This document shows, piece by piece, positions 3,814 through 20,000 of a stretch of 20,000 nucleotides of DNA. The translations under genes and the position numbers were made by a program. The DNA lies in IMG/VR virus record IMGVR_UViG_2889023381_000003, positions 54,662-74,661 of that record. One strand, written 5' to 3'. The notes beneath the pieces are model-generated. The model made no database searches, was not told the DNA's origin, and saw only the letters and a list, made by a program, of their open reading frames with translations. Each line of letters starts with the position of its first letter. The first letter of the stretch is position 1. Origin of the DNA: an uncultured virus (IMG/VR IMGVR_UViG_2889023381_000003). Taxonomy: Duplodnaviria > Heunggongvirae > Uroviricota > Caudoviricetes.

Positions 3814-4047
3814 CTATCGGTAGGCCCAAAAGTGCGGCAGGCAACCGCCCAGGCCCAGCACGCCAGCGAGCCACGTCACGATGGCGATGATGCACAGCAG
3901 GCCAACGATGATCTGCGCCCATTTGTAGACCATCGGATCGATGCTCCAGCCGAGGAAGCCGGTGATCAGCCAGCGCATCGCATAGGCGACCACGAAGATG
4001 ATCGCGAGATAGAGCAGCAGGCCCAGAAACGAGATCAGGATCGACAT
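3814..4047 (-). CDS. Small two-TM membrane protein, possible holin
   Basis: 77 aa (MSILISFLGLLLYLAIIFVVAYAMRW...) with two hydrophobic segments; GGAGG RBS upstream of ATG 4047; first gene after a terminator. Confidence 0.7.
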   Translation of the reverse strand: MSILISFLGLLLYLAIIFVVAYAMRWLITGFLGWSIDPMVYKWAQIIVGLLCIIAIVTWLAGVLGLGGCLPHFWAYR

Positions 4048-4060
4048 GCCGCGCCTCCAC

Positions 4061-4089
4061 AAAAAAACCGGCCTCAGTGTGAAGCCGGT
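4061..4089 (-). terminator. Intrinsic terminator upstream of the late operon
   Basis: Minus strand reads ACCGGCTTCA-CAC-TGAGGCCGGT followed by TTTTTT. Confidence 0.8.
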
Positions 4090-4162
4090 GAAAGCAATGT
4101 TGTGTAGCGTCTGGACACAGGGGCGAGTCACACTTCGAGCCGCACCTGCGCGCGTGAAGAGA

Positions 4163-4768
4163 TCACTCTGGAACTGGAAAATCAATTCCCGGCAGCGGCG
4201 GGAAGATGTGATGTGGACCTGTCTGGACCTCATTGGTCAAAATCTGTCGAAAAATATTTTGTCGCAGGCGGGCTCGAGCCTCGGCATAGGACATGCCGCG
4301 CCCTTGCTGCTTGGCTTCCAGCCGCCACGCGCGATAGGCCGAATTGAACCACGCCAGCTCGCCTGCGGCTTGCGCCTGCGCGATCCGCTGCTCGATGTAT
4401 GCGACCGCCGTGCGCGCCCGCGCGAGCACGGTGTCGTGCTCGGTAAGCGCAATGCCCATATGCGCGGCGACGTTCTCGACCTTGCGCTGCGCGGTCCTGG
4501 CGGTGGCTACCAGCAGGCCATCGTCGCCTCGCGAAAGGCTGGCGTTGACCTCGCGGCAGATCAGCCTCGCGTCGGTTTTATCCTTCACCCAGTACGCGCA
4601 GGTGATCTGCAATGCGGGCCATCTGCGGCGCAAGGCCAGCAGGCTGTGCAGCAGATCGCGCGAGCATGAGACGAAAGCACCTGCAGGCAGCGCGGCAACA
4701 TAGATCGCGACCACACCGTAGATCGCCAGATATTCCCGCACAGCTCCTCTCGGCAGCATCAGTGCCAT
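4163..4768 (-). CDS. Hypothetical phage protein (201 aa)
   Basis: Clean ORF with a GAGG RBS, co-oriented with the operon; family not recognised. Confidence 0.65.
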   Translation of the reverse strand: MALMLPRGAVREYLAIYGVVAIYVAALPAGAFVSCSRDLLHSLLALRRRWPALQITCAYWVKDKTDARLICREVNASLSRGDDGLLVATARTAQRKVENVAAHMGIALTEHDTVLARARTAVAYIEQRIAQAQAAGELAWFNSAYRAWRLEAKQQGRGMSYAEARARLRQNIFRQILTNEVQTGPHHIFPPLPGIDFPVPE

Positions 4769-4917
4769 CGGGTGCCTCGATCTTATGCGGTTTGTGACAG
4801 AACAGCGCAGATCAAAAATATTTCATCGGGAAAAAACGGCAATGTGCACAATGTGACACCGATCACGTTCACGCATCTGAGAAATCGCCCCAATCCGCTC
4901 ATCTAAGAAATTCTGCG

Positions 4918-5913
4918 ATGACGACGCTTGAGTTCGGGGTGGAATTGTTGAGTTCGGGTGGAATTGTCAGGGTTCAGCAGCAACTTGAGTTTGCCGACTT
5001 CGAAGTGCTGCGCAACGCCGTGCAAGATGCGCCAACACCAATGGACATCGTGCAGCTTGGGCAAGGCGAGATGGCCGGGACGCTGGCTCACCTGTCGGTT
5101 GGCTCGGTCGGCATCTCGACTGGCTCCTTCACGCGCGGCGTGCGTCAGCGCGGCGTTCTCAGCACGAACCGATGGACTTTCGGCATGCTGCTCGGCAGCT
5201 CGGCCTTGCTGCAGCATTTCGAGGCGACACCGGGCGATCTCATTGTGATCGCGCCCGACCAGGAACTCTATTCGCGCTTCATCAACGGCAACCATTATGC
5301 AACGACGCTCGTCGCGCCGGACGAGCTGTTCGCGTTTCTCGCCACCCAACCCGGTGCGCAGGATGTCGCGGCGTGGCACCAGCCGACTACGATGCTGGCC
5401 AGTGATCGGGCGACGACTGCTGCCAACGTCAAACAGATGTCGATGATATTGGCTGCGCTCACTGAACATGGGCCGAAGCTGTCGGTTGACGCCGCCGATT
5501 TTTTCAAGCGCAACATTCTGGAGCTGGTGACCGCGCCCGTGCGCGACACCGTCCGCTATAGGGGTGCGCGGGTGCTCGCGGCAGCAAAGCTGGTGCGGGA
5601 GGTGGACCGCTACATGATTGATGCAGGCTCCAGACCCATCCACATTTCCGAACTTTGCGCGCACTTCAGCGTGGGCCGTCGAACGCTGCATCGAGCTTTC
5701 AACGAGGTGGTTGGCATCTCGCCGATTGCTTTCATGCGCCGCAAGCGGCTCGGTGACGTGCACACTGTGCTGCTGACGGGCGGGCCTGACGCGACGATCA
5801 AGGATGTTGCAATCGAGCATGGCTTTATCGAACTCGGCAGATTTGCTGGCGCTTATCGACGGTTGTTCGGCGAGTTGCCATCGCAGACCTTGCGGCGTGC
5901 TCAACATCGCTGA
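4918..5913 (+). CDS. AraC/XylS-family transcriptional regulator (EutR-like architecture), moron-like
   Basis: C-terminal double HTH: ISELCAHFSVGRRTLHRAF...GISPIAFMRRKRL...IKDVAIEHGFIELGRFAGAYRRLFGELPSQTL. Oriented opposite to its neighbours, with an AT-rich upstream region. Start could be the TTG at 4948. Confidence 0.93.
   Translation: MTTLEFGVELLSSGGIVRVQQQLEFADFEVLRNAVQDAPTPMDIVQLGQGEMAGTLAHLSVGSVGISTGSFTRGVRQRGVLSTNRWTFGMLLGSSALLQHFEATPGDLIVIAPDQELYSRFINGNHYATTLVAPDELFAFLATQPGAQDVAAWHQPTTMLASDRATTAANVKQMSMILAALTEHGPKLSVDAADFFKRNILELVTAPVRDTVRYRGARVLAAAKLVREVDRYMIDAGSRPIHISELCAHFSVGRRTLHRAFNEVVGISPIAFMRRKRLGDVHTVLLTGGPDATIKDVAIEHGFIELGRFAGAYRRLFGELPSQTLRRAQHR
4928..4966 (+). repeat. Tandem imperfect duplication (20 bp + 19 bp)
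   Basis: TTGAGTTCGGGGTGGAATTG then TTGAGTTCGGGTGGAATTG; the copies differ by one G. Confidence 0.9.
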
Positions 5914-12317: not shown

Positions 12318-12569
12318 TCAAGCGGCCTGTTCGTTGTTGTTTTCCGTTGTGCCGTAGAAGCCCCAGAGCGAGATCGGCGCAAAGTAGCCTTCGTCCGCGA
12401 GCGCGGCGCGCATACAAAAATAATATTTGCTCGGGAAGAGTCCGCGATACCTGCGCCAATTGCAGACAGCGGCGCACGTCTGGCCGGTGATGCGACCGAC
12501 AGCCACAGGGCCGCCGAGCGCATCGACAACATCGTTGAATGACCAGAGTGGTTGTAGAGGCCGCGTCAT
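12318..12569 (-). CDS. Cro-like HTH regulator
   Basis: DVVDALGGPVAVGRITGQTCAAVCNWRR..FP; first gene of the minus-strand operon. Confidence 0.85.
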   Translation of the reverse strand: MTRPLQPLWSFNDVVDALGGPVAVGRITGQTCAAVCNWRRYRGLFPSKYYFCMRAALADEGYFAPISLWGFYGTTENNNEQAA

Positions 12570-12578
12570 GATGGCGGC

Positions 12579-12608
12579 ATGCTGGGCTTCAAATTATATT
12601 TCAGTCAA
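12579..12608 (-). promoter_or_regulatory. Putative sigma70 promoter for the cro-replication operon (near-leaderless)
   Basis: TTGACT (12608-12603), 18 nt, CAGCAT (12584-12579); ATG about 10 nt downstream. Imperfect inverted repeat TCAAAT-TAT-ATTTCA overlaps the spacer (possible operator). Confidence 0.55.
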
Positions 12609-12759
12609 ATGCGCGAGCCGGTCTTCATTGGCCGCACGCGAGCGCAAGGCTGAGGCCAGATAAGTTCAGCTAGGTCCACATCAGCTCAGGTCGCCGCAAA
12701 CTATTTTTTTGTATGCGAAAAGTGACAGCGCCGCGCTCGAAAAGAATCGCGGCTGCCTC

Positions 12760-12788
12760 TTGACGCAACAAATTTTTCTGCGCGAAAT
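12760..12788 (+). promoter_or_regulatory. Putative sigma70 promoter for the recombination/early operon
   Basis: TTGACG-N17-CGAAAT with AT-rich tracts upstream. Confidence 0.5.
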
Positions 12789-12817
12789 CACAATGCGCTG
12801 AACCTCGCTGCACGTAG

Positions 12818-12950
12818 ATACGGGACGCCGCAGCAGGTGGGAGGACAAAAACTATAATCCAATCGCAGAGCAACAGCCTGCGGCGCACAACACGGAAGCC
12901 ATCCGGCTTATAGCGTACCTCAACCTGCACTTGCGGGGAGGCGTCCCTAT
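12818..12950 (+). ncRNA. Candidate structured 5' leader RNA (long imperfect stem with two apical hairpins)
   Basis: Nested complementary blocks GGGACGCC/GGCGTCCC, GCAGGT/ACCTGC, GAGG/CCTC and CTATAA/TTATAG, with inner hairpins CGCAG/CTGCG and CGGA/TCCG. Confidence 0.6.
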
Positions 12951-13734
12951 GTCTGAGTTCGACTACCAGATCGGCCGCTTCACTGGCACCAGCGCCAATG
13001 TGGTGATGCATGGCAGCGAAGCCGACTGGATCAAGCATTATCGCATGAGGGCCGCGCTCGATTCGCCTGATCCGCCGAACTGGGCGATGCGAGCTGGCGC
13101 TCATATGGAAGCCCTCGTGCTTGACTGGCTCGAAGAACATAGCAGCCCGATCACGCGGCGCGGCGAAGTGGTTTACCATCCCGAGATCGCGGACGTATGC
13201 GCCAAGCTGGACGGCTATCGCGCCGCCGATGACGCCATCATCGAGGTGAAGTTTCTGTCGCCGCAGCGGCACAGGGACGAGTATCTCCCCGCATACTATC
13301 CGCAGACCATGCTGCAGCGGCTCTGCACCGGGGCCAGCAAAGTCGTGCTGGTTGTCGCACAGGGCACCAACGAGCCTATCGACTTCGAGATGGCACATGA
13401 CGCCGATTACGCCGTCGAGCTGATGCGGCGCGCGGGCATCTTCCTGAACTGCTTACGCACCCTGACGCCGCCTTATCCGATCCCGCCAGCGCCGCCGCCG
13501 CCCGAGCGCTGGCGCACGCTCGATATCATCGCCGAGCCGACCAACTGGAGCAGCGAGCTGCTGCTCTAACTTGCCGAATATGACAGCACGGCCGCCGCCG
13601 CCAAGCTGCACGATGAGATGGGCAAGGCCGCCCGCGATCTCGTCCCCGATGATGTCGGCAAGGTCTTCGCTGGCGACTTCCAGATCACCCGCAGCCGCAA
13701 AGGCGTGCTGTCGATCACGAGGAGAGCCGCATGA
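12949..13734 (+). pseudogene. YqaJ/lambda-exonuclease-family nuclease with an in-frame TAA at 13567-13569
   Basis: AMRAGAHME...CAKLDG...IIEVKF...YYPQ motifs. The frame continues past TAA as LAEYD...DLVPDDVGKV...ITRSRKGVLSI to a TGA overlapping the ERF ATG. Confidence 0.82.
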
Positions 13735-16980: not shown

Positions 16981-17814
16981 ATGAGCAATTCCGAGAGAGT
17001 AGTCCCGCTGCCGATCCGCGCCAAACTGATCTGCTCTGCATGTGGTGCTCCCGGCGAAGGCAGCTGCCGATGCGGGGCACCTTACGTATCGCCGGGAGAC
17101 CGAGCAGAGGAAGCGGTCAAGGCTCACCCGGAAAAATCCGACCGCGCCATCGCCGCTGATCTCGGCGTCGGCACCATGACGGTCAGCAGAGCGCGTAAGA
17201 GAGCAACTGTACCAGATGGGACAGTTGGAAAGCGCACCGGCAAGGACGGCAAGGCGCGCAAAACGCCGACGAGTAAGCGGTATCACGCGCCGAAGCGGCA
17301 CTATGCCGAGCCGGTCGTAATCGCGCTCGCCGATCAAGACAAGACCAGCGCCGAGATCGCCAAGCAAACCGGGATCGGCAAGCGGCAGGTGCGTCATATC
17401 ATTGAGCGCGAGCAGGTGCGCCGCGAGGCGAAGGCCGAAGCGGCTGATCCCAGCGCGCTGGCAGAGCAGAAAAGGCTTGCCAGTCTCTCGCGCCAGCTGG
17501 AGGCAGACTTTGAGTGCCGCGTCACGGAGCGGTATCAGCAGCTGCTCGAAAATATCTGGCCGCGCCTGAAGGAGCGCGAGGCACTGGCTGATCGCGTCAT
17601 CGTTTCTCGCAAGGGTCTGATGGATCGCCGCACCTACGTCAAGATTCTTGCGCGGCTGCATCCCGACATGGGCGGCAATGCCGAGCTGTTCGATATGTTC
17701 AAGCGCCTCGAAACGCTGCTGCTCAATGAGCAGGAGTGCCCCACCGAGCGAGTCGGGTTGCCGCGCACGGCTGCAGAGTGGGAAGAGCGCATGCGCAGCA
17801 AGATGCAGCCGTGA
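16981..17814 (+). CDS. Multi-domain protein: Cys cluster, two HTH-like motifs and a C-terminal HPD (J-domain-like) segment
   Basis: CSACG...CRCG; SDRAIAADLGVGTMTVSRAR; TSAEIAKQTGIGKRQVRHI; YVKILARLHPDMGGNAELF. Confidence 0.8.
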   Translation: MSNSERVVPLPIRAKLICSACGAPGEGSCRCGAPYVSPGDRAEEAVKAHPEKSDRAIAADLGVGTMTVSRARKRATVPDGTVGKRTGKDGKARKTPTSKRYHAPKRHYAEPVVIALADQDKTSAEIAKQTGIGKRQVRHIIEREQVRREAKAEAADPSALAEQKRLASLSRQLEADFECRVTERYQQLLENIWPRLKEREALADRVIVSRKGLMDRRTYVKILARLHPDMGGNAELFDMFKRLETLLLNEQECPTERVGLPRTAAEWEERMRSKMQP

Positions 17815-17852
17815 CCGGCAACCATATGTGGATCACTGAAATGGAGGAAACC

Positions 17853-18140
17853 ATGAGCGAGCAGAGCACCACCGCCACGCCATTGTCGGCACTCGCTGAG
17901 CGCGCCACCGCCAGCGGTGCATGGTGGAAGGAAGAAGCACTGGAGCAGCGCAACGAGCTGGAGCTGCCGACCCGCGTGCTGCACGTGCTCGATAACGCTG
18001 GCATCACGACCATCGAGCAGCTGAAGGCGGTGGGGCCGCACCGGCTGCGCAAGCTGGATGGCATCGGCAAGCTGGGATTTGAGCAGATCATCACGCTGTT
18101 GCGAGCGCTCGACCGGCAGAGCAATGGCGGTGAGCGATGA
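17853..18140 (+). CDS. Stand-alone RNA polymerase alpha-CTD-like (HhH) protein
   Basis: ELELPTRVLHVLDNAGITTIEQL...LRKLDGIGKLGFEQIITLL parallels the alpha-CTD pattern (LEL..R..N.L....I..I.DL...L.K..N.G.K...EI...L); GGAGG RBS. Confidence 0.78.
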   Translation: MSEQSTTATPLSALAERATASGAWWKEEALEQRNELELPTRVLHVLDNAGITTIEQLKAVGPHRLRKLDGIGKLGFEQIITLLRALDRQSNGGER

Positions 18141-18787: not shown

Positions 18788-18874
18788 GCTGATGAGTCTT
18801 TTGCAGTGAAGGAGGAAAGCAGTCGCCTGGGGCACGTAGAGAGCGCAGAGGGAAAGGAGCGCGAGGTGCTGGAA

Positions 18875-19120
18875 ATGGACGACGTAAAGAAGGGAGCGCG
18901 GCGGATGCTCACGATGGATCAGGTGCTGGAGCTGGTGCCGGTCGGCAAGTCAACGCTGAAGCGCATGGTCAAGAACGAGGAGTTTCCAAGTGCGCATTAC
19001 ATCAGCCCGAAAAAACTGGTCTGGTATGAAGATGAGATCGAGCTATGGCAGGGAAGCCTGCCAGCCGAGAGCCGCCGCAAGCGGGCCGAGCGGAGGGCCA
19101 AAGCTGGCCAGGGGGGCTAA
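18875..19120 (+). CDS. AlpA-family excisionase / regulator
   Basis: MLTMDQVLELVPVGKSTLKRMVKNEEFPSAHYISPKKLVWYEDEIELW; last gene of the early operon. Start could be 18806. Confidence 0.88.
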   Translation: MDDVKKGARRMLTMDQVLELVPVGKSTLKRMVKNEEFPSAHYISPKKLVWYEDEIELWQGSLPAESRRKRAERRAKAGQGG

Positions 19121-20000
19121 CTAGTACCCACTTTTCTTGGAACGTGAGTCGCGATTCAAGATATGGATGATCCCCGAAGCAAGAGAAGTCCACCTTTCGC
19201 GGAGAGACCGCAAGGTTCTTGAGGCGTGCTGTCGCTCGCCGGTGACGCTGCAGCGCGATTTGAAGCGGGCGCGGATAGTTCTGTTGGCGGCGGACGGGCG
19301 CAGCACCCGCTCGATCGCCAAAGAAGTCGGAGTCCAGCCGCGGATTGTCAGCCTTTGGCGACACCGCTATGCCGATCATGGCCTTGAAGGACTGCACGAC
19401 AAGCCGCGGCCCGGCAAGCAGCCGATCTATACGAAGGCCACCGACAAGCGGATTCTGAAGCTGCTGCATAAGCCGCCACCGCAGGGGTTTGCGCGCTGGA
19501 CTGGCCCGCTGCTGGCCGAGGCGCTGGGCGATGTTGATGTCCAATATGTCTGGCGGTTCCTGCGTAGCCACAAGATTGACCTTGCGGCTCGCAAGTCCTG
19601 GTGCAAGAGCAACGACCCGAACTTTACGGCCAAAGCCGCCGATGTTGTTGGCCTCTACGTCGCCCCGCCCGCGAAGGCCATTGTGCTATGCGTGGACGAG
19701 AAGCCCTCGATCCAAGCTTTAGAGCGAGCGCAGGGTTATCTGAAGTTGCCCAATGGCCGCGCCTTGACCGGCCAGAGCCACGATTACAAGCGGCATGGCA
19801 CTACGACATTGTTTGCGGCGCTCGAAGTCGCCACCGGAAAGATCATCGCGGCTCATTCAAAACGCAGCTTCAGGAACACATCGATGCCTACGTCAACGCG
19901 GACAACGACAAAGCCGAGCCCTTCGTCTGGACCAAGAAAAAGGTTCGTCAACGCCCCTTCAAAGGCCGCCGTATCACTCAGCTCTGATTCCGGCTACTAG
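19121..20000 (+). mobile_element. IS630-family element (ISRj1/RS-alpha-like), internally deleted
   Basis: CTAG at both ends (19121-19124 and 19997-20000); short terminal inverted repeats GTACCC and GGCTAC (one mismatch); encloses an IS630 transposase. Confidence 0.9.
19167..19987 (+). pseudogene. IS630 transposase with a deletion/frameshift near 19865
   Basis: MIPEAREV...RARIVLL...VLCVDEKPSIQALER...YKRHGTTTLFAAL...HSKR joins out of frame to QLQEHIDAYVNADNDKAEPFVWTK. The second Asp and the Glu of the DDE triad are missing. Confidence 0.88.

Follow-up and report, generated by a model that had tools for sequence, protein, structure and literature searches.

The divergent region between a Cro-like gene and a YqaJ-type exonuclease gene (exo) in the window, the whole stretch of 20,000 nt analysed in this study, is a switch that belongs to a group of alphaproteobacterial temperate phages. 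It may well be an intact cI-free switch in which a translation-damping leader is combined with a displaced protein repressor, a reading to which we give about an even chance. The absence of cI, the conserved pairing in the leader, the repeat arrays, the regulator sites and the presence of the distal genes were determined by comparison; the transcription starts, the direction of every regulatory effect and which protein binds what are what we infer.

The window is the final 20 kb of a 74.7-kb virus record classed as a provirus, and its named protein relatives come from Bradyrhizobium. An annotated phage collection searched with exo and cro gave no matches. The gene order is lambda-like, with the Cro-like gene (12318-12569) heading an arm of methylases, primase, helicase and terminase, and with the YqaJ exonuclease, ERF and, at the end, the AlpA excisionase in the opposite arm. 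The main genes are the following.

12318..12569, minus strand: Cro-like gene, 83 aa, first gene of the replication/late arm (PHROG 8008 DNA-binding protein, E 5.5e-5)
12949..13734, plus strand: YqaJ-type exonuclease, first gene behind the leader (Pfam YqaJ and PHROG 434)
18806..19120, plus strand: AlpA-family excisionase/regulator, last gene of the arm before the prophage end (PHROG 66, Pfam Phage_AlpA)
4918..5913, plus strand: AraC-family regulator (Pfam HTH_18)

The Atlas clusters nearest to the Cro-like gene that carry names have P22_Cro and YdaS families in 25-100% of their members. P4 Vis is an AlpA-family regulator and in this respect like the AlpA-family excisionase here. The exo ATG lies at 12949-12951. 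The exonuclease of the window copy has an internal stop at 13567-13569 and is uninterrupted (261 aa) in L001 and L002, and an IS630-type transposase lies directly 3' of alpA (19137-20000); judging from the stop and the transposase, the prophage copy in the window is probably defective. A gene for a free RNA polymerase alpha-CTD-like domain (17805-18140) is kept in all close relatives examined. A Mom-like DNA modification gene and a ParB-domain gene (1256-2083 and 2274-2987) both adjoin terS. The integrase and a few genes occupy the far end of the prophage and are encoded on the strand of the exo-alpA arm (G000:C1:532-4402; also G051, G001, G002, G004 and G142), and from this layout integration seems to split the exo-alpA arm between excisionase and integrase. 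The G051 prophage is flanked by genes that we take to be ubiA-like and pmbA-like.

The preliminary description had reported that the cro-exo gap contains no repressor ORF, and this was confirmed: neither an ORF nor a remnant is present. Relatives of cro and exo were gathered from virus, genome and metagenome collections, yielding 51 distinct cro loci, 23 of which have a divergent exo within 700 bp (cro-yqaJ loci); their exo identity to the window is 38-99%, and several of the 23 are near-identical. With stop codons read as X, a cI-like HTH or its remnant was found within 600 nt upstream in 0/23 cro-yqaJ loci, so the relatives lack cI in the gap as well, versus a cI-like HTH beside 21/28 other cro homologues (9 of these 21 loci had served to build the cI profile). 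Of the remaining seven of the 28, three are second cro copies and one is a tandem copy, and the other three lie on truncated contigs. Because cI is missing in 23/23 cro-yqaJ loci, its absence is not a private deletion of the window copy, and a simple cI deletion was rejected; given 0/23 against 21/28, the cI-free gap is, as far as these sequences tell, an old trait of the whole group. A 22-nt inverted repeat (cro coding region / 12696-12717) was rejected both as a cI remnant and as a long RNA pairing, because the cro promoter lies below the repeat and no HTH remnant was found. A repressor with an S24 self-cleavage domain was found in 0/15 virus records, a result of little weight, since the cI-like proteins of related prophages are also short. 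The gap of L030 is longer (654 nt printed) and, by eye, has a small excisionase-like HTH ORF directly before exo. L016, L019 and L022 carry a second cro-like gene ~7 kb from the first on the opposite strand.

Two promoters were placed in the gap.

12579..12608, minus strand: inferred cro promoter, TTGACT, 18 nt, CAGCAT (TTG(A/C)C/T ~35 nt above the ATG in relatives)
12760..12765, plus strand: -35 element TTGACG of the inferred promoter of the recombination arm (CTTGACG invariant in 7-8 relatives)

The -35-like TTG(A/C)C/T at ~35 nt above the cro ATG occurs in the close group and in L004, L012, L018, L021 and L032; a consensus promoter scan of the window did not detect the cro promoter. From promoter spacing, the recombination-arm transcript would start near 12795, and the cro spacing implies that the cro mRNA would be almost leaderless, as many phage repressor mRNAs are. 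Together with an AT-rich imperfect palindrome that overlaps the cro promoter, and with the presence of the gene in every locus (true by definition of the set), the short mRNA speaks for the Cro-like protein as the main repressor of its own and the divergent promoter, the leader merely fine-tuning exo. We regard this as very doubtful: cro heads an operon with primase and helicase downstream, 22 bp from the next gene and without a terminator between, and its distant homologues adjoin divergent cI-like genes, as the Cro partner of a real cI.

The leader itself, with limits set by inference from the conserved TTGAC-like box, has the following parts.

12802..12838, plus strand: 5' hairpin P1 with a 9-nt loop at 12816-12824 (pair probability and covariation)
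12842..12861, plus strand: A-rich single-stranded linker after P1 (unpaired in folds)
12864..12882, plus strand: inner hairpin P2 (probability 0.95-0.99)
12918..12941, plus strand: local hairpin with the Shine-Dalgarno sequence in its 3' arm (local folds)
12940..12955, plus strand: target of the long-range helix, Shine-Dalgarno sequence to first codons (paired with 12815-12829)

Each stem of the nested fold initially proposed for this region is an exact reverse complement at its coordinates, and the window leader does fold better than shuffled controls: RNAfold of 12810-12960 gave -58.5 kcal/mol with a z of -3.52 (1/200 shuffles as good), the fold taken from 12790 has a z of -2.25, and the 151-nt segment from 12801 has the lowest z among 50 segments sampled across the 20 kb. 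In pair probabilities computed on the full leader (12795-12960), the outer nested stems (GGGACGCC 0.95, GCAGGT 0.91, GCA 0.88, GAGG 0.84) and the enclosed hairpins (CGCAG 0.99, CGGA 0.64) were retained; the CTATAA/TTATAG inner stem (0.10) and ATA/TAT in the register first proposed (0.00) were lost. An alternative pairing of 12826-33 with 12878-85, thought to free the start region, has a probability of 0.00 for a transcript starting near 12795 and reaches 0.87-0.89 only in transcripts that start at 12812 or later and end at 12900; by these probabilities both the inner CTATAA stem and the alternative pairing were rejected. P1, which the preliminary description did not contain, has a probability of 0.82-1.0 until the transcript end reaches ~12925, after which the long helix replaces it, and the exo start-codon region is complementary to the loop and 3' arm of P1. 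At the place of the linker, 9-14 of 20 nt are A in 6/7 close relatives, and an entry for Hfq or RNase is possible there. The P2 position has a hairpin of differing sequence in several relatives, and the local Shine-Dalgarno hairpin has a mean z of only -0.75 over 19 leaders. No Rfam family matches the leader at the gathering score, and two matches to human lncRNA, at E 3-6, are at chance level. The window leader has no intrinsic terminator that would give a short form (its longest U run is 2) and no upstream ORF; unrelated short ORFs occur in 4/19 leaders, none of them conserved.

Comparison among relatives, which are related sequences and no independent samples, separated the parts of the leader that are shared from those that are not. 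The nested fold is not conserved as a whole: RNAalifold on 7 close leaders gave a consensus of -3.3 kcal/mol and no useful whole-leader fold, and whole-leader folding is weak in relatives, with z < -2 in 3/21 and near zero in most. The comparison did support a cis-acting pairing of the leader with the start region. Among 19 leaders (21 minus two near-duplicates; L002, L039 and L030 were left out), the duplex of the 5' 60 nt, a length chosen after inspection of the sequences, with the start region beats shuffles in 9/19, compared with 6/60 controls, two of these six positive control entries being, by coordinates, exo leaders themselves. Own 5'-start pairs also beat permuted pairs (p 0.00065). 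The significant duplexes fall into about seven lineages, between which their sequences differ, and 10/19 leaders have no significant duplex. Covariation is seen in the P1 stem (12802-12838) of close relatives (score 0.244 vs 0.150; 2/500 shuffles; 8 related sequences). In 5/5 prophages the exo start is the best target of the P1 loop and first 3'-arm bases among 121-154 starts; the scan of start-codon regions gave one conserved target, and there is one copy of P1 only. A search with model R1 retrieved only its own training loci and near-identical copies, and a pattern scan matched 0/33 loci to the model, the scan gap being too short even for L001/L002. The 9-mer GTGCGACGG occurs in both the cro leader and the exo leader in the gaps of L003, L019, L022 and L023.

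The P1 loop is more conserved than the P1 stem, which, with the near-zero whole-leader z in most relatives, would suit a leader that is mainly a protein-binding or antitermination signal (a nut-like hairpin), its start-codon pairing being secondary or, in a 62% GC genome, partly chance. The long arm would gain from antitermination, and a tandem winged-helix protein conserved in the group has a weak likeness to the RNA-binding part of SelB (TM 0.23). We consider this reading improbable, since two-sided changes preserve the loop-start pairing of L010 and L011, and the leaders of L003, L019, L032, L035 and L036, though unrelated in sequence, each pair with their own start.

The mean cost of opening the ribosome site is 15.1 kcal/mol in the 19 leaders vs 11.1 kcal/mol in 91 controls (p 9e-5). 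Locking the 5' part of the leader cuts this cost by 1.8 kcal/mol on average and by 2.8 in the window, a small release because the local hairpin also covers the Shine-Dalgarno sequence. The two folds (P1 vs long helix) are within 3 kcal/mol of each other in 4/6 close leaders, pseudoknots left aside, with an energy gap of 8.1 in the window and of 6.6 the opposite way in L009. As the opening cost falls by only 1.8 kcal/mol, the two leader folds are no clean on/off pair; the leader looks like a damper in these calculations, and sharp on/off behaviour is unsupported.

Two arrays of 10-bp repeats were identified in the window.

12657..12696, plus strand: four degenerate direct repeats of 10 bp, with CA recurring at each 10-bp step (lag analysis and alignment)
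4206..4235, minus strand: second 10-bp array, within the 3' end of ORF 4163-4768 (leave-one-out matrix)

The first array is centred between the two early promoters. The best lag is 10 in 15/19 loci vs 6/106 control regions, and an alignment of 7 relatives shows all four CA steps unchanged. When the matrix was built without the tested phage, the second array ranked 1-4 of 119,942 positions in 6/6 prophages; it always lies directly above the lysis/packaging operon and keeps its CA step while the codon changes between Pro and Ser. Array-like sites beside the alpA 3' end have modest scores (rank 5-294 in six prophages; rank 567 in G000, where the IS630 element follows alpA), and such sites lie inside the far prophage end in 4/4 examined. 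L015 and L020 each have a further copy of their own repeat behind alpA or behind the integrase. An att core was sought in the prophages and not located. Excisionases such as 186 Apl bind to repeats spaced by one helical turn, which lie at att and in the stretch between the early promoters (PMC7498355, in part). As Apl-type repeats occupy these two kinds of place, AlpA would be the likely binder of the arrays, and 12657..12696 is by analogy a probable candidate for an excisionase (AlpA) binding array. On the minus strand at ~4040-4200, between ORF 4163-4768 and the first lysis-type gene, lies a highly conserved non-coding block with a terminator hairpin, which may be something like a late promoter with an attenuator. 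ORF 4163-4768 resembles T5orf172/GIY-YIG clusters.

The gap holds a further site, which recurs elsewhere in the window.

12712..12727, plus strand: 16-bp site TATGCR-N4-GTGACA, 33 bp above the -35 element (match counts, araC co-occurrence)
4784..4858, plus strand: two further copies of the 16-bp site, directly above araC (match scan)

The window has 3 matches of the 16-bp site vs 0.11 expected, and host genomes have it almost only in the prophage, which contains 3/3 exact matches of the 11.7-Mb genome G001. Further copies lie above araC, at the late terminator and behind the integrase, with similar sites above araC or a divergent ORF in G001, G004 and G051. It stands in or beside the gap together with araC in G000, G142, G306, G001, G004 and G051, araC being broken in G142 and G306, and in G305, a record that is 74% complete and contains no araC. 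The site is missing in G002, in G003 and in 12 further virus records, all without araC. In G003 this slot is filled by a different palindrome, with matching sites next to a winged-helix gene that G002 also carries. The AraC-family regulator (4918..5913) is, from this co-occurrence, the candidate binder of the 16-bp site.

The supposition that a protein repressor is absent held for the switch and was not supported for the rest of the prophage, where HTH genes occur, one of them in 6/6 records at least 90% complete; this goes part of the way towards a result that the preliminary description had named as refuting it. These genes lie in a distal operon behind the tail genes and a terminator, with its own promoter-like conserved block. 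The operon begins with the tandem winged-helix protein, followed by the protein of most interest here.

G000:C1:29620-29985: 121-aa XRE-fold protein (fold and profile matches to XRE regulators)

The XRE-fold gene and its winged-helix neighbour are both present in 18/22 records, including 6/6 near-complete ones; the four misses are three records 50-81% complete and one genome whose contig ends early. The structural model of the XRE-fold protein is weak (pLDDT 62, best Foldseek E 0.057), and at 121 aa it is within the size range of the cI-like proteins of related prophages (101-144 aa). The distal operon extends over many further small genes and is possibly an early one. A search of six prophages for an operator shared by the switch and the distal promoter yielded nothing beyond the AraC-linked site. 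A 134-aa canonical XRE protein follows the XRE-fold gene in only some records and, being missing in G001, G002, G003 and G307, is unlikely as the general repressor.

A second structured leader lies above the distal operon (G000:C1 ~30640-30850, minus strand; L065:2735-2950), in which, across 6 relatives, a hairpin shows two-sided changes and a long-range helix hardly varies; the consensus is -27 kcal/mol, with 7/27 pairs compensated. A word similar to GTGCGACGG is conserved in this distal leader in the close group. Regulation of the exo leader by the distal leader in trans was rejected, since 5 prophages gave no duplex in common between the two. In G308 a second cro-like gene heads an operon containing both conserved HTH genes. 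G142:C1 carries a second copy of the distal operon and of 16-bp sites across the chromosome record start, from which the G142 genome is taken to contain two related prophages.

The conservation of the distal HTH genes also weighs against RNA immunity, a reading in which the P1 part would come free as a stable small RNA and target the exo start in trans, by P4 CI-like shut-off or IsrK-like activation. The AlpA-ending arm would then be silent and a protein repressor unneeded, with the replication and late promoters off until AlpA or the alpha-CTD-like protein served as activator. In full, no protein repressor would act at the early promoters, a leader-derived RNA would silence the excisionase arm, the array-bound excisionase would activate replication and late genes, and a swappable ligand-sensing regulator would set the threshold. 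Several observations are in keeping with it: cI is missing from the switch in all 23 loci; P1 exposes a conserved loop on a covarying stem, followed by the A-rich linker; its best target is the first start codon; the 5' and target sequences differ between lineages, as immunity types would; the 10-bp array is shared with the late promoter; and the alpha-CTD-like gene is in the same arm as alpA in 6/6 close prophages with alpA, plus G000. An excisionase also activates replication in Pf4 (PMC7379572, in part). Counting against it are the lack of an intrinsic terminator for a short form, the single target and single copy of P1, and the cro promoter, which has a near-consensus -35 and no leader, so that an RNA cannot control it directly. 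RNA immunity is an unlikely reading, in our estimate, both in its parts and as a whole.

In the reading preferred here, that of a damping leader and a displaced protein repressor, back-to-back promoters would drive two arms, one with cro and the replication genes, the other with exo, erf and alpA. P1 would form first in the 155-nt leader; once the start region is transcribed, it would be captured by the P1 loop and 3' arm, and exonuclease translation would then be brief or weak. The leader would in this way be a cis-acting translational damper, limiting leaky expression of the excisionase-ending arm. The 10-bp array would serve AlpA as a feedback site, shared with the late promoter and the prophage ends, and a further slot in the gap would take an accessory regulator, AraC here. 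Lysogeny would most likely be held by a repressor moved to the separately promoted operon behind the tail genes, namely the 121-aa XRE-fold protein (G000:C1:29620-29985), perhaps with its winged-helix neighbour.

P1/P7 C4 RNA is an RNA immunity system comparable to P4 CI; the leader described here differs from both in having no Rfam match. The Gifsy-1 IsrK leader, isrK-orf45-anrP (PMC4825925, in part), is similarly a prophage leader of ~160-180 nt whose 5' part pairs downstream and whose output is first-gene translation, as it would be here; its two folds have nearly equal energy, a trait seen here in some of the close leaders. It differs in having an intrinsic terminator (for the short form) and an upstream ORF, neither of which was found here, and Gifsy-1 keeps a protein repressor; the present leader also has no Rfam match. 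P4 likewise has no repressor gene at its control region and a leader RNA element complementary to the first-gene start; its CI is a processed trans-acting RNA with two targets (PMC4825925, in part), in contrast to one target among the start-codon regions scanned, and candidate protein repressors, here. By analogy, the closest counterpart of the leader in its way of working is Gifsy-1 IsrK, and its logic is also that of P4 CI; it is a member of neither, because terminator, upstream ORF and family match fail.

The array resembles those of 186 Apl/P2 Cox (PMC7498355, in part) and ICE RdfS (PMC11963761, in part) in its degenerate direct repeats one helix turn apart, placed between early promoters and perhaps, in array-like form, near the attachment ends. 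The layout differs. In 186 and P2 the promoters are face-to-face, CI/C lies next to them and the lytic operon opens with the excisionase gene (PMC7498355, in part); the present promoters point away from each other, AlpA is encoded last in the recombination arm, and the late operon has another array above it. Lambdoid cI/Cro switches, among them those of cI-bearing prophages in the same genus (L042-L060), likewise have cro, replication and late genes running one way and exo, erf and xis the other; unlike there, cI is absent here without a remnant and the integrase of the close group is at the far prophage end. In the literature searched, of which coverage was incomplete, no description of a switch of this kind was found.

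In summary, the cro-exo region represents a real and conserved form of temperate-phage switch, a variant that is apparently undescribed. The usual assumption for lambda-like prophages is that a cI next to cro holds them; here a whole group does without that layout. The group is integrated in several Bradyrhizobium genomes and also appears in soil-type metagenome records. Soybean bradyrhizobia release temperate phages spontaneously at high rates by a mechanism that is open (PMC11599138, whose part seen does not cover the present phage group), and a different switch logic would bear on this question. The sequence gives precise, testable parts for it: the loop-start pairing of the leader, an early/late array of excisionase type, a phage-specific regulator site and a candidate displaced repressor.
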